Below, piece after piece: positions 7,002 to 21,179 of a DNA stretch of 29,321 nt; within the stretch, counting starts at the first letter, position 1; the number at the start of each line of letters is the position of its first letter. The DNA comes from Phycisphaerales bacterium. Its GTDB lineage: Bacteria > Planctomycetota > Phycisphaerae > UBA1845. The notes under the pieces were generated by a model that was given only the letters and a program-made list of their open reading frames with translations, ran no database searches and was not told the origin of the DNA. Location of the stretch: positions 1 through 29,321 of the forward strand of contig JAUWNF010000001.1 of the NCBI GenBank assembly GCA_030612785.1, in the 5' to 3' direction. The translations under genes were made by a program, and so were the position numbers.

Positions 7002-9299
7002 TCAGATCAGACGAATCGCGACCTGATAGGTGACAAGCGCCCCGCCATACGCCAGCACTGTCATGTACCCGAAGGCAAACAGAGGCCAGCGCCAACTATT
7101 GGTCTCGCGCTTGATGATCGCCAGGGTCGCTCCGCACTGACAGCACAGCGCGAAGAAAACCATGATCGACAAGGCGACGGCCAGGTTGAAGACCGGCCGG
7201 CCGTCGGGCCAGGTGGACCGCTGCAACGTGGACCGCAGGTCGACGGAGGCTTCATCCTGTTCCTCGCCGAGGTTGTAGATCGTGCCCAGGGAAGCGATGA
7301 CCACCTCGCGCGCGGGCAGTGAGGCGATGACCGCCGTGCCGATGCGCCAATCCCAGCCCAGCGGCTTGACCAGCGGTTCGATCCACCTACCCATCCGCCC
7401 CAGGAGGCTGTGACGCAGGTAGCAGCCGGCCTCCTCTCGATCAATCTCACTTAGCCGCTCTTCCAGTGATTGATCGACGTGCTGCCGGACCTGGACGCGC
7501 TGTACTTCGTGATCCGCGGCGATGGACGCGGGGTGCGGATAGTATCCCATCGCCCAAACCACGAGCGTGACGGCGAAGATAATAGTTCCCGCCTGGATCA
7601 CGAACGCTTTGCCCTGCGCGTACATGCGGTAAAGCACGGTGCCGACGGAGGGCCACTTGTACGTCGGCAGTTCCAAGAGAAAAGGAAATGATTCTCCTTT
7701 GGAGACGGTCTTGCCCAGGATGAACGCCACCGGGATGGCAATAACGACACCGAGCAGATACATCACCAGCAGGGTCACGGCCCGCAACCCGATCAACCCT
7801 CCCAACAGCGAAGTGGCGGGCACGAAAGCGCCGATCATCAGGACGTAAATAGGCAGCCGCGCGCTGCAGGTCATCAAGGGCGCGATCAGAATCGTCACCA
7901 GACGCTGACGCGGGTGCTCGATCGTGCGCGCGGCCATGATTCCCGGGATCGCGCAGGCAAAACACGACAACAGGGGAATAAACGACTTGCCGCTAAGCCC
8001 CAGGCGGCGCATGTGGCGGTCCACCAGAAAGGCCGCCCGCGACATGTACCCGCAATCCTCCAAAATGGCGAGGAAAAGGAACAAAATCAGAATTTGCGGT
8101 AGGAAAACCAGCACCGCGCCGACGCCCGCGAACAGCCCGTTGGCGATCAGACTCCGCAGAGCACCAGGGGGCAGCAAGCCACCCACCCAGTTTCCCAGGC
8201 CCGCGAAGGCGCCGTCGATTAGATCCATCACCGGGCCCGCCCAGGTGAAAACCGCCTGAAACATGACCACCATCAAAACAAGAAAGATCGCTAGGCCGAG
8301 CACGGGATGCGTCAGGTAACGATCAACCGCGTCGGACCTCGTGCGGCGGGGAGGGTGCCGGCGTGTCAGAACGTCGGGAAGGATCAGATCGATCCACGCA
8401 TAGCGGACACGGGCTTCGATTTGCGTGACGTCTTCGCCGGCTTCGCGGATGCGCTCCCGGCGCTCGCCAAGTTCGTCGGCCACACGCCCACCGCGGCAAA
8501 GCACGAGACGCTCCTCGTGGTATCCTCCAGGGTTGAGCAGCGCTTGCAGGAGCTCCACCCTGGTGGTAGGCGCGGCCGCATCACATCCTCGTCCGACCGA
8601 CGCAGCCAAGCCCTCGAGTTCCTCACGGATGCAGGCGGGGAACTCAGCGTAACGATTGGGAGGCGGCGCATCGAGCGATTCGATGATCGCCTCTTTCAAC
8701 GCCGCAATGCCGACTCCCTTAGGCGCGACTACCTCGACGACCGGAACCCCAAGGATGGTTGCCAACTTCTCGACGTCGACTTCCAACCCGGCGGCGCGGG
8801 CCAGATCCACCATGTTGAGCGCGACCACCGCCGGATGGCCGAGTTCAAGAATCTGGCTAACAAGGAACAGGTTGCGTTGCAGATTGGCCGCGTCCACCAC
8901 GCAGACAACGGCGTCCGGCTCGGCGCCACCGCCGGCGCGACCGTTGAGCACATCCAGGACTACACCCTCGTCCGCGGAGCCGGCGGCCAAGCTATAGGTT
9001 CCCGGAAGATCAAGGATTTCGATTCGCGCCGAAGAGCCCCCGGTCTTCAAAAAGCCGGTCTTGCGTTCGACCGTGACCCCGGGGTAGTTGCCCACACGTT
9101 GACGGTAGCCGGTCAGGGAATTGAACAGCGTGGTCTTGCCGGTGTTCGGGTTGCCCACTAGGGCAATGCGCTTTGTGCGTGGAGGGGAATCGATCTGTTC
9201 GCGGAAGGTCACGAGTTGGCTGCGGAACGTGTGGCCCAGCCGCCCTCGGCTGGGTTGCTGCTCAAATACAGCGGAGGGCCGCTGTCCCACATGTGCCAA
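7002..9299 (-). CDS. feoB: Ferrous iron transporter B
   Basis: G1 GNPNTGKTT, G2 VGNYPGVTVE, G3 DLPGTYSL, G4 NMVD, then membrane gate domains (FSCFACAIPG-like SCFACAIPGIMAAR, PLMTCSARLPIY). The start may be the GTG at 9212. Confidence 0.96.
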   Translation of the reverse strand: MAHVGQRPSAVFEQQPSRGRLGHTFRSQLVTFREQIDSPPRTKRIALVGNPNTGKTTLFNSLTGYRQRVGNYPGVTVERKTGFLKTGGSSARIEILDLPGTYSLAAGSADEGVVLDVLNGRAGGGAEPDAVVCVVDAANLQRNLFLVSQILELGHPAVVALNMVDLARAAGLEVDVEKLATILGVPVVEVVAPKGVGIAALKEAIIESLDAPPPNRYAEFPACIREELEGLAASVGRGCDAAAPTTRVELLQALLNPGGYHEERLVLCRGGRVADELGERRERIREAGEDVTQIEARVRYAWIDLILPDVLTRRHPPRRTRSDAVDRYLTHPVLGLAIFLVLMVVMFQAVFTWAGPVMDLIDGAFAGLGNWVGGLLPPGALRSLIANGLFAGVGAVLVFLPQILILFLFLAILEDCGYMSRAAFLVDRHMRRLGLSGKSFIPLLSCFACAIPGIMAARTIEHPRQRLVTILIAPLMTCSARLPIYVLMIGAFVPATSLLGGLIGLRAVTLLVMYLLGVVIAIPVAFILGKTVSKGESFPFLLELPTYKWPSVGTVLYRMYAQGKAFVIQAGTIIFAVTLVVWAMGYYPHPASIAADHEVQRVQVRQHVDQSLEERLSEIDREEAGCYLRHSLLGRMGRWIEPLVKPLGWDWRIGTAVIASLPAREVVIASLGTIYNLGEEQDEASVDLRSTLQRSTWPDGRPVFNLAVALSIMVFFALCCQCGATLAIIKRETNSWRWPLFAFGYMTVLAYGGALVTYQVAIRLI

Positions 9300-9325
9300 C
9301 CCATCGAATTAGCGTTGACGGAGCG

Positions 9326-9550
9326 TTAGTGGAGAGTCAAGTCTATGTTCCGCTGGTGGACGGATCCCAAACCCACGCTCGTCTGATCGATCCTGACGAT
9401 GCAGGGATCGCCGGCGCACACCATCTCCAGGCGCGCACCGCAAACGAAACCAAAGTCCGCCAGGCGTTTCGCGCACGACCCTTCGGCGGAGACGGAAGCA
9501 ATCGCTCCGGTCTGTCCCGATTTCAAAGCGACCAGTTGCACAGCCATCAC
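9326..9550 (-). CDS. feoA: FeoA (SH3-like) ferrous iron transport protein
   Basis: LKSGQTGAIASV...KRLADFGFVCGARLEM...GDPCIVRI, directly upstream of feoB. Confidence 0.88.
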   Translation of the reverse strand: MMAVQLVALKSGQTGAIASVSAEGSCAKRLADFGFVCGARLEMVCAGDPCIVRIDQTSVGLGSVHQRNIDLTLH

Positions 9551-9633
9551 CCTCCACTCAGAATACGGAGACCGCCGCCATTTAGAGCCAAGCGATGCTC
9601 CGCGTCAGCTTGCACCACATCACGTTTCGCCAG

Positions 9634-9717
9634 ATGAGACCGAGTCTCTATCAAACGCATCGGCACACTCCACAACCGACCTTAGACGTCACCTCGCGAA
9701 TTGAGACCGGCTATCAA
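9634..9717. promoter_or_regulatory. Two related imperfect palindromes upstream of feoA, candidate Fur-type operators
   Basis: ATGAGACCGAGTCTCTA (9634-9650) and TTGAGACCGGCTATCAA (9701-9717). The TGAGA-N5-TNTCA shape resembles Fur boxes. Function is inferred from position. Confidence 0.4.
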
Positions 9718-9948
9718 GAGTTATAGCAAACCCGGTGCCTAATGTCACGTCCTCTGCCGTCAAGAGCTATCGGAGCGGATGCAGATGCCTATCAATAACC
9801 TCCAGAGCATACCCGAAGGCGAGCACCAGCGGAAGGGGTGAGAGACAGAAAATGAGACATACTATCAAATGGTCGATGCTTCTGGACCCTTCCGGCCGCA
9901 GAACGCTCACTCAGGAAGCAATGCCAGCATACAGTGCGTCTACCATAC

Positions 9949-10623
9949 CTAAAGCTCAAACCGAACGCAAGCCGCTTCCGATGGAAACCGGTCGGCACGG
10001 ACTTCGGATAGTTCCTCTGGACTCGGCGGTTGCAATTCGCGGCGAAGACGTGTGGCCACGTGCTCCATGTCGCCGCTCGTGATGGCGCCCATGGAGGAGA
10101 CGACGCGAGCGGTGTCACCCGACCACTGACACGCTGTGTCCGGGGCCACTGCCGCCAATGACCCCATAAAACCATGATGGGATCGTCCGCGCCGGTAGGT
10201 CGGTTCGCGCGAGCGGTGCAGGCACGCACCACCGACCTTCCTGTCACCGAGGATCAGATCGCATATCCCTGCCTGCCTAACGCCGGAGACGCCGATGCGC
10301 TCCAAGCCCGCGATCAGCCAACTGGTGAGCATGTCAAAATGTCGACGATGGTGGCCGAACGGAAGCCCGGTCACGACCACGGACACAATCACGTTGCCCG
10401 GATCAAGGACCACGGCGCACCCTCCCCCGCGGCGCCTGAGGATGGGTACGCGGTCAGCATGGCAGGCGTCAAGGTGCAATTCCACGTCCGGTCGACTACC
10501 TGAACCGAGAACCACGACCGTGTCCCTGAGCCGATAGACTCGGACCCTTGCCTGTCCGTCGCGGCGCGCGGCACGGATCAGATCGTCATCGTATGTGTAT
10601 GGTGGAAAGGCGAAGTCAACCAT
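9949..10623 (-). pseudogene. Lipoate-protein ligase A family protein with an apparent in-frame internal deletion
   Basis: VVVLGSG, ILRRRGGGCAVVLDPG and DLILGDRKVGG motifs are present. KVGGACLHRSR runs directly into EPTYRRGRSH, so the intervening strand and helix expected in LplA proteins are missing. Confidence 0.7.
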
Positions 10624-10627
10624 AGCT

Positions 10628-10800
10628 CTACCGTTTCGTCGCGTGGACGTGGACGGCTGAACCAGCCGCTACCTCACTGGCTTCCATGATGGCTTCGGAC
10701 AGCGTGGGGTGCGGGTGGATGGTGACCATGAGGTCCTCCAACGTGGCCCCCATCTCCAGAGCGAGCGTGCCCTCCGCAATGAGTTCCGAAGCGTGGGGGC
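10628..10800 (-). pseudogene. lpdA: 3' fragment of dihydrolipoamide dehydrogenase (E3)
   Basis: GPHASELIAEGTLALEMGATLEDLMVTIHPHPTLSEAIMEA, the E3 C-terminus with the HPTxSE motif. The FAD and NAD domains are absent. Confidence 0.85.
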
Positions 10801-10915
10801 CTGCGGGTCCCGTCGGCGGCACGAGGCGAATGTCCACCTTCAGCTCACGGGCCAGACGTCTCGTGGCAGGTACGGCTACGACGCGCCCCCATGAGGCAGG
10901 GGGGGCAGCCGAACG
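10795..10915 (-). pseudogene. Fragment of dihydrolipoamide acyltransferase (E2): peripheral subunit-binding domain and linker, fused in frame to the E3 fragment
   Basis: VVAVPATRRLARELKVDIRLVPPTGPAG fits the PSBD pattern A.PA.RRLARE.GVDL..V..TGP.G. Confidence 0.75.
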
Positions 10916-10980
10916 GGACGGAGACTCCATGATCCCTGAGCCGATGACCAGGCCGCGAGCCCGGTAGTTGACATAGTCCG
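10915..10980 (-). mobile_element. Short transposase remnant (ISKra4/ISLre2-like catalytic Glu motif)
   Basis: DYVNYRARGLVIGSGIMES resembles the Y..YR..G..IGSG..ES motif. It covers only about 20 codons. Confidence 0.6.
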
Positions 10981-11135
10981 TTATCGTAAAGGAGAATCTC
11001 CCCGAACTTACCGCGGACGCCGCCGACACACTGGCCATTATGTAGAGGGTGACTGGCTGCGACACCGAGCACAACGACTGGTTCTGGGCCAAGATCGCAC
11101 CCGGCGGCGAGATTCAAGCGGAGGGCAAAATCGGC
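10977..11135 (+). pseudogene. Internal fragment of a cytochrome P460-family protein with a premature stop
   Basis: Manual translation: [51 protein letters not shown]. This fits the family pattern IVKEN...MYK...DWFWAK...G, with TAG where Tyr is expected. There is no CxxCH. Confidence 0.6.
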
Positions 11136-11912
11136 TTTTTTATACCCATCTTCTTGATGCGCGAGGCCACGGTGGTCGGTCTGAGTCCCAGGAGTTCAGC
11201 CGCTCCGCCCGGGCCGTAGATCTTCCAAACGCTCTTGTGCAGCGCGGCCAGCAGGTTATCGCGTTCGCGTCGCCTCATCTCCGCGTCGGACACGACCTCT
11301 TTGTTCGCGTCGTCCCCGGCCTCAGGACTGACTGAAGGTGTCGTTGTCTCCTGCTGCTTCTTACTGAGCAGGTCGAAGTGAAGAGCGCCGGACCGCGCGG
11401 TGATAAGCGCACGCTCGATGACGTTCTGTAGCTCGCGTACATTGCCGGGCCAGTCGTAGCGCTGGAGTTGCGGGATGTTCGCCTGAGTTAGCCGGGGCAG
11501 TGCGCAGTGCAGCCTTCGCACCGCTACTTCCGAGAAATGGGCGGCCAAGAGAGGGATGTCCTCCTTGCGACGCCGCAAGGGAGCCACTTCGAGAGGGAAC
11601 ACGTTGAGACGATAGTAGAGATCCTGCCGGAACCGCCCGGCCTCCATCGCCTGTTTCAAGGCCCGATTGCTGGCGGCGATGATCCGTACATCCGTTTGCC
11701 GTGTCTTCTCGTCGCCGATGCGCTCGTACTGCCCTTCCTGCAGAACGCGTAGGAGTTTGCTCCGCAACTCCAGGGGGATTTCGCCGACCTCGTCGAGGAA
11801 CAGGGTTCCACCGTCGGCCAACTCGAAACGCCCCGCCCGAGCCTTGACGGCGCCGGTGAATGCTCCCTTGACGTGTCCGAAGAACTCGCTTTCGTACAGC
11901 TCCCGGGGGACC
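11114..11912 (-). pseudogene. 5'-truncated sigma-54 activator (FhlA/HyfR-like AAA+ half plus Fis HTH)
   Basis: Begins at [21 protein letters not shown] and contains Walker [19 protein letters not shown] and the [14 protein letters not shown]. Walker A and the sensory domains are absent. Confidence 0.85.
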
Positions 11913-11997
11913 GGATGACGAACAGGCATCCAAGCTGGAACAGGTTGATCGGCTTCTCGCCATTGTTGGAAGCCGCGTGTGCCTGCGGAGCAGGCGG

Positions 11998-12124
11998 AGG
12001 GTTCTGGGTTCGGGACGTAGCGTCCGGTCTCCGTGCCGGACGTGGGGTTCGGGGTTCAGGGTGGGGCAGGCGTTTCGCCCGCCGGTGTGGCGGTGCGACG
12101 CCTGACCGGAGCGCAGCCGAAGGG
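11998..12124. repeat. Cluster of degenerate short repeats and palindromes
   Basis: Two GGGTTC(T/G)GGG(G)TTC(G/A)GGG runs. GTGGGGCAGGCGTTTCGCCCGCC (12061-12083) shares GGCGTTTCGCCCGCC with the reverse complement of 15096-15118. CCTGACCGGAGCGCAGCCGAAGGG lies at 12101-12124. Confidence 0.55.
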
Positions 12125-12184
12125 TCAGCAGTGCTCTGGTCGGAACCGTCACCTCGCGAACGCACTGCTCAAGAGCAGTGGCAC

Positions 12185-12335
12185 CCGGCCCGTTCCGCGT
12201 CGCACGCAAGGGTGGTGGCGTCTTCAGGATCAGGCTCCGGGCGAAGGCCACGCTGTAGTCCTTGTAGCCCTTCATCGCCGCGAGAATCTCGTTCCGCCGG
12301 GCCGACTTGACGTGGGCGAGCAGGAAAAGGTGCAT
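12185..12335 (-). pseudogene. Fragment resembling the C-terminal region of RepB/ParB-like proteins of integrative elements
   Basis: HLFLLAHVKSARRNEILAAMKGYKDYSVAFARSLILKTPP has natural codon usage inside an otherwise junk ORF. The family resemblance is recalled, not searched. Confidence 0.4.
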
Positions 12336-12348
12336 CACGGGACGGCGC

Positions 12349-12630
12349 CTACATGGCTTCGGTACCGCAATAGGCGCGAAGCGAAGCCCATCCGCGGCCC
12401 GAAGTCCGATCGTGCTTTCCCACCGGTTCGACCTGTCTGATCTCGCCAAACCCGGTCTTGAAATGTTGCCCACAGCAGTGGGCTCTGTAGCCCTCGACCG
12501 CCAGGGGCTCGCCACAATGTGGGCACTTGACAACAAGTCCATCTCGCCACGGGTGCTTCAATACGACCTCACCCAATAAGTTGTCGTAAAGACACCAGAT
12601 CGGATTCGTCCATATCTCGCGCGGGAACAT
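12349..12630 (-). CDS. Small hypothetical Cys-rich protein (CPHC...HCC), possibly a fragment
   Basis: 93-aa ORF with protein-like composition and no RBS identified. Confidence 0.35.
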   Translation of the reverse strand: MFPREIWTNPIWCLYDNLLGEVVLKHPWRDGLVVKCPHCGEPLAVEGYRAHCCGQHFKTGFGEIRQVEPVGKHDRTSGRGWASLRAYCGTEAM

Positions 12631-12881
12631 AGAACAAGCTCTCCTCCGCTCGATTCATCAGTGCGCGGCTCCACAACACTGCGTCAGCCGTTTCGCGTCG
12701 TCCCGGCTCAAATCGAGCCGCCCGGGATGATACGCCCGGGTCGCAAAGCAAACAGGGGACGTTTCCGGGGCCATGCCCCTATTCCAGAATCGAGCCCCTA
12801 GGTTCAAAGAACCTGGGCCACCCGGTCAGGACTCCGAACCAGCCAGGGCACCGTGGCGTGGTCGGCGTAGCGCCGGAATGC

Positions 12882-14582
12882 TCAGAGGCATTCGAGCACT
12901 GCTTCCGTAAAGCCCTGGGCGCGCGGTGTATCCCGATTGAAGGGAAGCCCCTTGGTCTCGATCGCCTTGTCAATGACCGCGAGCGTGTTTGTAAACGCGG
13001 CTGAGGCTTTGGGATGGTCAATGAGCGACTGGTCTAGCTTGTCGCAGTAAGCATCGAGCTTGCTTGAGTCTAGCGACGGTCGCTTGCTACCTCCGAGTTG
13101 GCATCGCAAGATCAGAAGCATCTGGTATCGGAATGGCCGGTATCTCCGCTCAATCACGTTATTCGCCAAGAGACTATCGAGCTTATAGTTGGCCAGGGCG
13201 CTGGTGTAATACGCAGCTGGGCGATGATTACTCCTAAACACGCGATCTCTAACACGCTCAAGCAGTTTCTTAGGATAGCGACCCGCAGAATGTGGCTCGT
13301 CGAGGAACATCGACACAAAGACCCTTAGTTGAGCAGAAATAGGTATCACGCGACTCTTCTCGACCGTGTCCATGTGCGCGTACTGCCGTGATCTGCGCTC
13401 GTAATACAGCCGTCCGGGACCCGATACGGCAGCATAGTAATCTTCGAGGGTGCGCTGGAATTCCGATAGTGATTCGATGTCTTCAGGACGAATGGATGTT
13501 TGTCGGTTCGTGGCCGTTATGATCGAGTTCGTGACATCTTCATTGTCTGTTACGATGAGCTTGACAACAATGTGGGCTTGCTCGTCCACTGCATCCCGAG
13601 CGTTGAACAAGACATGACTCGTTTGGCATCCATTGACGATCTGGTAGTCTTCTATTCGGAACTTCTTTCCGACCCTATTCAATGTTCTCGCTACTACGGT
13701 GATACCGTTGTTGAGGACAATGAAGCGGTCCTGATTCCCCTTGTGAATGGAGGTCGCTATTTCTCGGTTAACATCGTTATCGCCTTGGAAGTCTCGAATA
13801 TTGTCATGGAACAGCACTTTGCGAATATGACCGGCATCATCTTGCAGGAGCTTCAGATACTCCTTTACAGGAAGATAGCCCAGGTAGGCTTCCTTGAGGC
13901 CCTGGATCTCAGGTAGCACCATTGCGGGGTCGATGGTGATCTCCGTAGATACCGCTCTTTGCGTCGCCTTATGAAAGGACTGAAGTTCCTTGGCGTCGAC
14001 TGGAATACAGCGTACTTCGCCGAAGAGGTTCATCGCGCGAAGGTGGTCAAGCTCCTTGTCAATTCTACTTTGAACAGTAGCATCATCCTTCCATTCGCCG
14101 GCTGCGACGTAGTAGAGGAAGCAGTTTGGGTTGCGCTCAGTCATCTTGACGCTATTGCCAAACAGTTGCTGTTGGAGATTTGCGTACTCCTCTATGGCTT
14201 CGTTCCTTGGCATTTGAGGCGATTCTGAAAAGAAATCTGACACGCCCGTGATGAAGGTGGCAATGTGCGCCCCTTGAAACTTCTTGCCGGACTTCGCTTG
14301 ACAGAAGACAAAATCCACATCCAGCGACTTGTTCGCTTCGCACAGGTCATCGATTTCTTCCGAGCTGGTAACAAGGGTTCCGTTAACGATGATGGCGATC
14401 GCATCAATACCTAAATCACCTCCACCATCGGTGGCAAGGGTGTCCGCAGAGAACGTCTCTTCGTAGTGTCGGGATACGCAGCAGTATGAAGCAAACCGTT
14501 CAAAGACGGAAGCGTCGTCGAGGTCATCATACTCGTGCGTCTTCTTGAAGTGGTCAAGCAGTGCCTGTGTGATCCTATCCAT
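12882..14582 (-). CDS. AIPR-family protein (abortive infection / RM-associated phage resistance)
   Basis: N-terminal DGGGDLGIDAIAI...FCQAK nuclease-like motif. AIPR core LFHDNIRDFQG...FIVLNNGITVVA...YQIVNGCQTS...ITATNRQT. AGAAGG RBS, intact 566-aa ORF, visibly more AT-rich than the flanks. Confidence 0.9.
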   Translation of the reverse strand: MDRITQALLDHFKKTHEYDDLDDASVFERFASYCCVSRHYEETFSADTLATDGGGDLGIDAIAIIVNGTLVTSSEEIDDLCEANKSLDVDFVFCQAKSGKKFQGAHIATFITGVSDFFSESPQMPRNEAIEEYANLQQQLFGNSVKMTERNPNCFLYYVAAGEWKDDATVQSRIDKELDHLRAMNLFGEVRCIPVDAKELQSFHKATQRAVSTEITIDPAMVLPEIQGLKEAYLGYLPVKEYLKLLQDDAGHIRKVLFHDNIRDFQGDNDVNREIATSIHKGNQDRFIVLNNGITVVARTLNRVGKKFRIEDYQIVNGCQTSHVLFNARDAVDEQAHIVVKLIVTDNEDVTNSIITATNRQTSIRPEDIESLSEFQRTLEDYYAAVSGPGRLYYERRSRQYAHMDTVEKSRVIPISAQLRVFVSMFLDEPHSAGRYPKKLLERVRDRVFRSNHRPAAYYTSALANYKLDSLLANNVIERRYRPFRYQMLLILRCQLGGSKRPSLDSSKLDAYCDKLDQSLIDHPKASAAFTNTLAVIDKAIETKGLPFNRDTPRAQGFTEAVLECL

Positions 14583-14713
14583 GACACCTTCTCTCTGTAG
14601 GAGCGCTTACGGAGAAGCGCCGGGGTGGCCCGGAGAACCCCATCAGGATCCCGCGGGCAAGTCTTGGCTGGCCGTGCTGCGCTTCGCCCCAGTCGTCGCA
14701 CTCGCCGTCTCGT

Positions 14714-14838
14714 TGAGATACGGTCCGCCCCTCAGTGAGATAGGGTCCGCGTCTCGGTGAGATCGGGTCCGGACCTCGGTGAGGTCGGGACCGAGTAAGC
14801 ACGGTATCGGGACCGAGTATGCAGCCTACTCGGTCCCG
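14714..14838. repeat. Five tandem 22-bp units with drifting sequence, ending in a hairpin
   Basis: TGAGATACGGTCCGCCCCTCAG / TGAGATAGGGTCCGCGTCTCGG / TGAGATCGGGTCCGGACCTCGG / TGAGGTCGGGACCGAGTAAGCA / CGGTATCGGGACCGAGTATGCA, then inverted TACTCGGTCCCG (14827-14838). Confidence 0.8.
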
Positions 14839-14990
14839 CCACCTGTTGAGGACCACGCCGCCTCCCAGCTTGGGTGCGGGCGCCTGCGCCAAGTAAGGCG
14901 CGGGAGTCGATCTCAGCTTGGAAACGGTTTTTCCAGGGCTCATAACGCCACACAACTTACCCAAATTGCCCATTTTGTCGCTCGCCGATC

Positions 14991-15014
14991 AGAGCCGCGA
15001 CCGTGAGGGAGCGG
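14991..15014 (+). repeat. REP-like family C (AGAGCCGCGACCGTGAGGGAGCGG)
   Basis: Related sequences at 19061-19082 and 20854-20877. Confidence 0.65.
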
Positions 15015-15095
15015 ACAGCCCAGGACAAGATCGTCCTCGTATCCAATCGCTTACTGACGTGCGCGGCTCTGATTTCGTCGCCGTCGGCACGCGCT

Positions 15096-15118
15096 GGCGG
15101 GCGAAACGCCCACCCTAC
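15096..15118 (-). repeat. GTAG-type REP (GTAGGGTGGGCGTTTCGCCCGCC)
   Basis: GTAG tetranucleotide followed by a GC-rich hairpin, the classical REP layout. Confidence 0.7.
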
Positions 15119-15416
15119 CCGCACCATGGCCGCGTAGTCGTCGGGGTCGGAGGTGATGTTGTTCTCGAAGAGGGCGCAAGCGATGAGCATGAGATCACTC
15201 CGAGATTCAAAACGTTGTTGGCAGCATACCGCGCTCGCGAGGCGCGGCAAGGGGCCAATCCTCGGCGGGCGGCGATCGGGGCGACTGTTCATAGAAACGT
15301 TTCTGTTTCCCAATGTTTACCGGCGATTCAGACACTTGACGGCCATACACTCGATCCTGGCAGCTACCTGCGTCGTGGAGCCGTTCGAGAATCAAAACGG
15401 ATTCACCCTGCGCACT

Positions 15417-20758: not shown

Positions 20759-20850
20759 CCGCTGGTGCGAGAATCCCTTCTCGCACCTATATCCTGCAGG
20801 AATCCCTTCCTGTGGAGCCAAGGACCGAGAAAGGACTCTCGGTCCAGCGA
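20759..20850 (+). repeat. 92-bp three-hairpin element (family A), copy 3
   Basis: Aligns without gaps to copy 2. Confidence 0.95.
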
Positions 20851-21179
20851 TCCGAGCCCCGAGCGCCAGCGAGCGGGACCCTACGCAAACAGGCTGCCCA
20901 CGAAGACCCCGCGTGGGCGCTTGGGGCTCTGATCAGCCCTGCCGAAATCGTCACGCACCCGACCGACGTTTTCCGCCTGGAATGCCCACTTCAGAGCCCT
21001 CGCGGAGGTACCGATAACACTACCACAAGGTGCATCCACGTAGTGTCCCGTCTCGGTGGATAGGCGCCACGAGCGGCTTGTCCGCCGTGTTGCGCGCTCG
21101 TCGCCCAGAGGAAGGCACTGAAAGGTGGCGTCAGGCATCCGATCGGCCCTGGCCGGACGATTGCTCGGAGTGTAACGCT

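Follow-up and report, generated by a model that had tools for sequence, protein, structure and literature searches.

Bacterial lineages that give up a dispensable pathway can leave deletional pseudogene relics, in which traces of the lost pathway stay readable, the remnants are homologous to the intact genes of relatives and short direct repeats mark the junctions (Kuo and Ochman 2010, PMC2916853; Danneels et al. 2018, PMC6054270). The same features recur in the 3-kb patchwork zone analysed here, where the pathway is a 2-oxoacid dehydrogenase and the host a sediment anaerobe. The zone lies in a stretch of 29,321 nucleotides (the window) from a cold-seep Phycisphaerae metagenome-assembled genome (MAG) of 739 contigs, 92% complete and with 5% contamination, and was compared with 101 family genomes and with protein collections. 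It looks like a row of deletion-truncated stubs from a 2-oxoacid dehydrogenase operon and its neighbours, combined with dispersed repeats. The best explanation, which we consider probable, is a cluster of recent deletions beside a dispersed repeat element, whether serial or in one complex event, and we regard the zone as ordinary gene decay of a kind already known, not as a new class of system.

A preliminary description of this DNA had listed at least six unrelated fragments. Six stubs were verified at or near the sizes given there (lplA, the E3 tail, the E2 PSBD, P460, the sigma-54 activator and RepB/ParB; Table 1), but lplA, E3 and E2 are not unrelated, because they are parts of one operon. 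The stubs lie within ~3 kb, with at least five junctions, and two of the deletions are in frame. That fragments abut without spacer was borne out at 10800/10801 and 11131/11132. Small ORFs at 9595-9910, 10845-11219 and 12172-12807 gave zero Pfam matches, even at E values up to 10, which leaves a claimed transposase motif of ~60 bp unsupported; the motif was not found. Nor could an identity be assigned to a supposedly protein-like stretch at 9780-9920. A search of 9300-15200 against Rfam returned a single match, a chance snoRNA-like hit (E 0.75).

Table 1. Features of the patchwork zone and its flanks (positions in the window; a dot marks features without a strand).
Feature	Position	Strand	Remarks
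feoB	7002-9299		FeoB Pfam hits
feoA, intact	9326-9550	-	73 aa; PF04023 FeoA on identical Logan contig; upstream of feoB
feoA upstream region (to ~9792) plus ~155 bp	9551-9948	.	GC 55%
lplA	9949-10623	-	in-frame 81-bp (27-codon) deletion at ~10196/10197; Pfam LplA-B_cat 1.8e-19
E3 (dihydrolipoyl dehydrogenase) tail	10628-10801	-	last 58 codons; Pyr_redox_dim 4.9e-11
E2 PSBD (E3-binding domain)	10799-10903	-	35 codons; E3_binding 2.3e-7
73 bp	10904-10976	.	possibly leftover E2 linker plus further P460 scrap
Cytochrome P460 piece	10977-11131	+	51-codon internal fragment; E 3.9e-15
GAF/sigma-54 activator, C-terminal half	homology 11132-11911; ORF 11114-11929	-	Sigma54_activat 3.8e-46
REP-like hairpin modules, dispersed repeat family	11908-12191	.	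left end cut at sigma-54 stub
RepB/ParB piece	12192-12344	-	44 codons; residues 160-203 of a 284-aa ParB_N+RepB protein
Cys-rich conserved hypothetical gene, intact	12349-12630	-	93 aa; 23 homologues
Predicted AbiU/AIPR abortive-infection gene	12882-14582	-	right flank; low-GC patch, 49-53%

Remains of a 2-oxoacid dehydrogenase operon

The relative G022 carries an intact E1a-E1b-E2-E3-lplA operon (G022:C23) on a single strand and in the same order as the stubs, which are homologous to the E2, E3 and LplA of relatives and match their intact operon in order, strand and spacing. The E3 tail (Pyr_redox_dim profile positions 69-109 of 110) retains its native stop, and the 4-nt gap between it and the ATG of lplA is identical to that in a second relative, G002; from lplA through the E3 tail the nucleotide identity to G002:C505 is 86%, and there the full E3 then continues. 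A 319-nt contig from a sister sample, X2, that is 97% identical to the E3 tail likewise runs into an intact E3 beyond 10802. Joined in frame to this tail, with junction microhomology GG(G) of 2-3 nt, is the E2 PSBD stub, which has 74% identity to residues 116-150 of the G022 E2 and 81% nucleotide identity to E2 on G002:C917; in G022, 2359 bp separate the PSBD from the E3 tail. Comparison with these relatives shows that an ancestor carried an E1a-E1b-E2-E3-lplA operon for a 2-oxoacid dehydrogenase complex.

In the host, tblastn found no E1a, E2 or E3 elsewhere in the 92% complete genome and returned a single E1b-like match, weak (22%) and on contig C197; no 2-oxoacid_dh domain was found in the genome either. 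E1a, the E2 catalytic domain and the FAD/NAD domains of E3 were found neither in the window nor in the rest of the genome; genus relatives retain E1b/E2/E3. With essential parts gone the complex cannot be assembled, and the lineage has lost it, although at 92% completeness the absence of these parts is not absolute.

In lplA, alignments against G002, G022 and the closest homologue, P0025, each reveal the 81-bp deletion, and the LplA-B_cat match covers profile positions 8-140 of 200 only. The missing block is conserved and lies just after the RKVGG lysine motif; in the G002 orthologue, the 81 bp deleted from the host are bounded by a CGCGA direct repeat (5 nt). The lplA product is probably inactive. 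A frameshift affecting the C-terminal region of lplA was also considered and rejected, since P0025 has that region too.

In G002 a multihaem cytochrome gene comes after lplA, and its orthologue in G000 has another neighbour upstream and sits on other contigs, so that rearrangement has affected this locus as well. The 86% identity of the E3-lplA relic to G002 exceeds the 71-77% of syntenic core genes, which hints that it was transferred recently or that the G002 contig is mis-binned.

Neighbouring stubs, the dispersed repeat and the flanks

The P460 piece lies on the strand opposite its neighbours. It has 55% identity to a G016 protein with a Pfam-confirmed P460 domain (PF16694), and its best match among 5.8 billion proteins reaches 61% only. 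Some 100 aa at its N-terminus and the terminal CxxCH are absent, and a TAG at 11043-11045, in place of a conserved Trp, is the only stop inside any stub. The adjoining 10904-10976 has no detectable homologue, with no matches besides antisense P460; by reading only, an Ala/Pro-rich stretch in it resembles the linker of the G002 E2, and a PMTR motif occurs in frame with P460.

The activator stub corresponds to residues ~282-540 of 540-aa GAF-containing orthologues (67-68% identity) and to positions 61-167 of 168 in the Sigma54_activat profile. It has lost the GAF domain and Walker A and keeps intact GAFTGA, Walker B, arginine-finger and HTH motifs. Because the missing half is found nowhere in the genome, and because the repeat copy adjoining the activator lacks ~110 nt that the copies on C31 and C268 share to its left, this junction speaks for a deletion rather than an insertion. 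No genome among the 101 of the family (DNA search), and none in the protein collections, has activator, P460 and operon side by side; six loci (12-20 kb) around activator orthologues contain no P460 and no E1/E2/E3/lplA, and the contexts of the closest P460 proteins contain no activator. Colinearity is proven for three of the six stubs only. The truncations look recent, judging from the AAA+ motifs of the activator, all intact by reading, and from the one stop across the stubs, and function in any stub is not likely.

To the right of the activator, the preliminary description saw REP debris, and 11908-12333 is indeed multi-copy and hairpin-forming, with a depth that rises to 334, compared with 9-18 on either side. 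Copies of the repeat occur on C31, C268, C324 (twice), C309 and C463 and at the contig ends of C23 and C30; those on C31 and C324 sit between long ORFs. Folded as DNA, 11905-12200 forms several stem-loops (-75.9 kcal/mol, z = -2.67). The RepB piece lies in a dispersed unit, 12045-12333, and its breakpoints recur: the start (residue 160) is identical on C324 and in G019, and the end (residue 203/204) on C324 and G004:C336. A contig from X4 has 53 letters where the window has 15, at 12313-12329. No inverted terminal pair was found for the repeat, whose unit has provisional ends, and no transposase domain was seen in the scanned ORFs. An assignment of the RepB scrap to an IS200/RAYT-type HUH motif was rejected upon finding full-length ParB_N+RepB homologues, and G004:C301 was rejected as a syntenic locus, as it shares only repeats with the window.

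A block at 12214-12825 is shared with G019, with 84% identity overall and visibly more in its core; G019 has 41 extra bp at 12333/12334, and a GTGCRTC repeat (7 nt) flanks this indel. The region 12349-12630 is no fragment: it is an intact conserved gene, whose 23 homologues (52-91% identity) have variable neighbourhoods with many defence and mobile-element genes. The gene at 12882-14582 is, from its sequence, a predicted AbiU/AIPR abortive-infection gene, with full-length matches to PADLOC AbiU (1.6e-133 over residues 2-563) and Pfam AIPR (1.5e-46). The right third of the zone is a dispersed repeat plus an intact small gene that moves between variable regions, beside the AbiU gene, and not local gene debris. 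On the left flank, 9318-9792 recurs beside feoA in other runs from marine sediment (90-95% identity), 9793-9948 has no Pfam or tblastn matches, and FeoB of genus relatives is ~55-60% identical, with paralogues that confuse FeoB-based synteny.

Origin of the patchwork

One option raised for the zone was an assembly chimera. A Logan contig of the source run, SRR12623518_258248 (3278 nt), reproduces 9300-11972 with zero mismatches and the same gene calls. A de Bruijn graph cannot join sequences at junctions that share no k-mers, and since a second assembler yields one identical, mismatch-free contig, the junctions within 9300-11972 are real and a chimera is excluded there. Such an artefact would be confined to the repeat join between 11972 and 12250, which comes from the MAG assembler only and where Logan contigs break. 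Exact protein matches to the stubs came from two Logan contigs, both of the source run, and none of the junctions was recovered in an independent sample. A mis-join through the shared repeat would bring together sequences of different places or strains, feoAB through the activator stub on the left and the RepB scrap, the 93-aa gene and AbiU onward on the right. It is suggested by this break, by a depth that about doubles across it (9.35 left, 18.2 right), by the high copy number of the modules in between (depth to 334), by repeats at contig ends elsewhere (C23, C30) and by the nature of a 739-contig genome with 5% contamination. We nevertheless consider a mis-join unlikely: exact-match unitigs cover 12020-12138 and 12163-12241, the window copy differs by 1-16%, depending on the module, from every other copy, so that a unique path exists, and X2 has exact pieces from either side at similar low depth (2.2-2.6 versus 3.1). 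If true, it would touch one junction, and all junctions within 9300-11972 would stay on one mismatch-free contig.

A microhomology-mediated collapse, another of the options raised, holds for E2, E3 and lplA, which are colinear, show microhomology and have a 97% identical relative with intact E3; for P460 and the sigma-54 activator it is inferred. Microhomology amounts to 2-7 nt where measurable (GG(G), CGCGA, GTGCRTC). One deletion of ~2.4 kb at 2-3 nt of microhomology made the in-frame fusion between the PSBD and the final 58 E3 codons, and an 81-bp deletion between CGCGA repeats took out the conserved lplA block; these two steps are shown. Further deletions would have taken the lipoyl domain of E2, the two E1 genes and the front of the P460 gene, another the rest of P460 from its 3' side as far as the stop codon of a convergent sigma-54 activator, and yet another the activator 5' half with the left ~110 nt of the REP-like repeat. 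Altogether, at least 6 kb would have collapsed to ~1.9 kb of stubs. For serial independent events, at least five deletions in 3 kb, two of them in frame, are unusual, which counts against a purely serial origin.

Could a single complex repair event, by template switching at a broken fork or by ectopic single-strand integration at microhomologies, have built the whole patchwork? The stubs all look equally young (intact motifs, one stop codon), their junctions are spacer-free with 2-7 nt of microhomology where measurable, the P460 piece is inverted relative to its neighbours and no relative has P460 or the activator beside the operon; ectopic-strand integration at microhomologies is moreover documented in Acinetobacter baylyi (bioRxiv 10.1101/2023.11.22.568220). 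The events described in the abstract of that preprint are, however, microindels, much shorter than the 150-800 bp pieces found here, and plain deletion explains why E2, E3 and lplA keep their native order, strand and spacing. Deletion alone would leave an identical picture if the P460 gene had been convergent with the activator while pointing away from the operon, and no parental P460 or activator copies are left in the genome as templates, all of which makes a single event improbable. We find it very doubtful that a recurrent break-and-repair hotspot, possibly triggered by the hairpins or linked to the adjacent variable or defence region, stitched in P460 and the activator by microhomology-templated synthesis, in which case some of the patchwork would have been constructed instead of being a leftover.

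The remaining option was a hotspot beside AbiU that captures short DNA by end-joining, forming a fragment archive that would be a new system. Fragments of unrelated function, on both strands and without spacers, near a defence gene, would fit such an archive, as would the variable, defence-type neighbourhoods of the 93-aa gene family. The colinear intact operon of relatives argues against capture for the operon part, three fragments being in native order and spacing, and both the RepB piece and the REP debris belong to a dispersed repeat that has the same breakpoints at other sites. A search of the host genome for intact donor copies found none, and neither Ku (PF02735) nor the LigD primase-polymerase (PF21686) gave a match in this 92%-complete genome; control genomes do respond. 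Fragment sizes are irregular (105 to 800 bp), no second such locus was seen beside homologues of the 93-aa gene, and a repeat search of 9600-12950 gave only two-copy matches of 14-28 nt, none of them at a junction, in agreement with the earlier observation that no junction motif recurs. We therefore regard capture as extremely unlikely and retain clustered recent deletions as the explanation.

Comparison with known systems

What the locus records is a cold-seep Phycisphaerae lineage that very recently lost its only 2-oxoacid dehydrogenase complex, which same-genus relatives and a 97%-identical sister-sample strain keep, with deletion scars still readable base by base. Gene callers take the stubs for genes, namely a 271-aa "sigma-54 activator", a 136-aa E3_binding/Pyr_redox_dim protein and a 224-aa LplA, so that metabolic reconstructions of the MAG would be inflated; the zone is a useful worked example for annotation, and its biological point is small. 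It also shows the spread through Phycisphaerae genomes of a dispersed repeat that carries a fixed RepB scrap.

With integron and CRISPR arrays the zone shares a row of short, mixed DNA pieces at one locus near a defence gene. The preliminary description had already set both aside, and rightly: neither an attC-like site nor a direct repeat recurs at the junctions, no integrase or Cas domains were found in the scanned neighbours, and the segments are truncated internal gene pieces, not whole cassettes or spacers of uniform size. REP/BIME hairpin clusters and MITE-like repeats resemble 11908-12333 in their short GC-rich hairpin modules, intergenic copies, mosaic structure and tendency to break assemblies; the repeat differs in its fixed 44-codon ParB/RepB scrap, both of whose breakpoints recur in several copies and genomes, and the analysis identified no terminal inverted repeats, no target duplications and no RAYT-type transposase. 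Short-patch double illegitimate recombination (bioRxiv 10.1101/2023.11.22.568220) shares the few-nt microhomology and the inverted segment, whereas the known events are called microindels in the abstract of that preprint and the pieces here span 105-800 bp, three of them native operon remains. From the deletional pseudogene relics, this zone differs in an unusually high density for a free-living bacterium, with six stubs and at least five junctions packed into ~3 kb, in the young look of all its stubs and in having two deletions in frame.

Gene remnants across the patchwork zone

The patchwork zone (~9735-12880) has a probable and ordinary explanation: a dispensable operon and the genes around it recently decayed by deletion, next to dispersed repeats. 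It lies on contig C282 of a metagenome-assembled genome (739 contigs, 4.08 Mb, completeness 91.7%, contamination 5.2%), and a cold-seep metagenome run contains the window sequence. The names carried by LplA and P460 homologues assign the genome to Planctomycetota, class Phycisphaerae. GC content is ~63% across the window, falling to ~50% at 13000-14500. The preliminary description of the zone was correct and read with notable accuracy: profile matches and homologue alignments verified gene pieces on both strands, of sizes right within a few bases, and a repeat search of the zone revealed no recurring junction motif, as had been stated. The transposase motif it listed was not found in the zone. 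Homology searches of 10904-10976 and 9793-9948 returned no identity.

Gene remnants and intact gene in the zone, with the extent of each match
Feature	Coordinates	Strand	Extent
Sigma-54 activator stub	ORF 11114-11929	minus	Sigma54_activat from profile position 61 on, then AAA lid
E2-PSBD/E3-tail fusion	ORF 10628-11092	minus	E3_binding at residues 71-98; Pyr_redox_dim positions 69-109 at residues 98-138
LplA-like stub	ORF 9949-10623	minus	match restricted to profile positions 8-140/200
Cytochrome P460 piece	10977-11131, through a TAG	plus	55% identity, E 3.9e-15, to a 174-aa protein of relative G016
RepB/ParB piece	12192-12344	minus	residues 160-203 of 278-284-aa ParB_N+RepB proteins of relatives G034 and G035
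93-aa Cys-rich conserved hypothetical gene, intact	12349-12630	minus	23 homologues, 85-123 aa

An operon with missing segments

Rather than being unrelated fragments, as had been proposed, the E2, E3 and lplA pieces are shown by their alignments to be a single operon with parts deleted. In the relative G022 (contig C23), the genes for the 2-oxoacid dehydrogenase subunits E1a, E1b, E2 and E3 and for lplA are consecutive, and the PSBD, E3 tail and lplA of the window are colinear with them on the identical strand, the PSBD and E3 tail being separated by 2359 bp in G022 and joined in frame without a gap in the window. Same-genus G002 matches 10205-10801 at 86% nucleotide identity, with a complete Pyr_redox_dim domain upstream of the match, and its E2 PSBD matches 10800-10912. 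When aligned side by side at the E2/E3 junction, the parents have only GG(G) in common; the E3 stop and the 4-nt spacer before the lplA ATG are identical in G002. Within lplA, 27 conserved residues found in G002, G022 and the closest LplA homologue (P0025) are absent from the window, and CGCGA brackets the corresponding 81 bp in G002. For these three genes, the native order and short shared motifs bear out the proposed collapse by microhomology-mediated deletion; for the P460 and activator pieces, an ancestral order was not found in relatives.

No other E1a, E2 or E3 and no 2-oxoacid_dh domain was found in the window's own genome, where the sole E1b match is weak (22%, on contig C197) and GcvH is still encoded; E1b, E2 and E3 are present in genus relatives. 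Another sample from the study behind the source run contains a 319-nt contig with 97% identity to the E3 tail. One end of this contig enters the lplA start; the other, unlike the window, carries on for 120 nt matching the intact G002 E3, indicating that a very close strain keeps E3 and that the deletion is recent. Since the relic is closer to G002 than are core genes (71-77%), and the cytochrome gene downstream in G002 lies elsewhere in the window's genome with a different upstream neighbour, the operon may have been mobile, or the G002 contig (C505) may derive from a closer strain.

Activator, P460 and repeat-derived pieces

Activator homology stops at 11132 and P460 homology at 11131, so that the two stubs abut. 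The Pfam domain Cytochrome_P460 is present in the G016 protein and a G021 homologue; the piece corresponds to residues ~100-150 of the former, and the CxxCH end is absent. Activator orthologues are 540 aa long with an N-terminal GAF domain, which, given the profile start, implies that ~281 residues including Walker A are missing from the stub; this half is absent elsewhere in the genome. The C-terminus is near complete, orthologues extending just 3-6 residues past the alignment. The stub shares 67-68% identity with six orthologues (76-87% among themselves), yet on reading its sequence no break is seen in the GAFTGA, Walker B, sensor or arginine-finger motifs. It appears to have diverged while functional and to have been truncated recently. 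In the simplest picture, the P460 gene would have stood tail to tail with the activator and head to head with the operon, with deletions trimming both sides; no relative searched has the three side by side. A second sigma-54 activator (3-788, minus; receiver domain plus AAA+, truncated by the contig end), adjoined by a histidine kinase (789-1958), is a paralogue of the stub (70% identity over 57 aa of the stub, 53% to a full-length orthologue).

The segment 11908-12333 has piecewise matches on other contigs of the genome (84-99%) and in other genera and families (80-96%), several hairpins in its predicted fold, and a depth of up to 334 (flanks 9-18). Two further copies (C31 and C268) have ~110 nt more in common, left of the point where the window copy meets the activator; as the window copy lacks these, the junction is a breakpoint within the repeat, of the kind left by a deletion rather than by a clean insertion. 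This repeat includes the RepB scrap, whose start (residue 160) recurs on C324 and in G019, and whose end (residue 203/204) recurs on C324 and G004:C336. In G034:C235 (97-2670) and G035:C4 (429-3067), a three-gene cassette with overlapping starts and stops combines a tandem pair of ParB_N/RepB-like genes with one for an HNH_repeat protein; a fixed piece of the second gene (residues 160-204), fused to REP-like hairpins, is dispersed in the window's genome (window, C324, C309) and G004. Scrap and hairpins may constitute a non-autonomous mobile element. The exact 14-nt word CGTCACCTCGCGAA is common to 9687-9700, upstream of feoA, and 12147-12160, in the repeat core; the remaining three of its 4 genomic occurrences all fall within the hairpin family, and the feoA copy may have arisen by chance or be a very small remnant of a repeat.

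The block 12214-12825, which includes the intact 93-aa gene, is shared with G019, from another genus; identity over the whole block is 84%, with a visibly more similar core (syntenic core genes of a same-genus genome, 71-77%). G019 has 41 bp extra, flanked by GTGCRTC repeats, and a contig from another sample (X4) has a similar longer form. The 93-aa family has no Pfam domain, and its neighbourhoods vary (loci L042, L043, L046), with methylase/HNH, serine recombinase, RelA_SpoT and NYN genes nearby. Shortly past the AbiU stop, a 38-nt hairpin (12787-12824; two C157 copies at 92%) may be a terminator-like repeat. Upstream of AbiU lies a dispersed repeat (14724-14977; G004:C301 and G004:C228, 78-79%), and an 84-nt repeat at 20850-20932 belongs to a separate dispersed family (C39, C641, C312, G002:C505; 80-82%).

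Assembly support and alternative readings

A 3278-nt contig from Logan, a second assembly, for the source run SRR12623518 is identical to 9300-11972 with zero mismatches and yields the window's FeoA, LplA-B_cat, E3_binding+Pyr_redox_dim and Sigma54_activat calls. Mis-joins in a k-mer graph cannot produce junctions that overlap by 2-5 nt, which establishes the left two thirds of the zone as real DNA. The suggestion of an assembly chimera is thereby set aside for 9300-11972; between 11972 and 12250 the Logan contigs break. Across this interval, Logan word depth doubles from 9.35 (8695-11972, feoA to activator stub) to 18.2 (12250-14792, holding AbiU and the 93-aa gene), a step for which a mixture of strains, an additional copy or a mis-join might account. 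That a mis-join through the repeat occurred there is improbable despite this step, and it would split the zone and leave the overall reading unaffected.

Capture of short DNA pieces by end-joining, forming a fragment archive, found no supporting evidence and is less probable still: three pieces (E2, E3, lplA) retain native operon order, two others are copies of one dispersed repeat, the junctions share no recurring motif, and neither Ku, LigD nor intact copies of the fragments were found in the 91.7%-complete genome. One complex repair event instead of serial deletions fits the present data as serial deletions do; we regard it as unlikely. Deletional loss of bacterial pseudogenes is already known, and the zone agrees with it (PMC2916853, PMC6054270).
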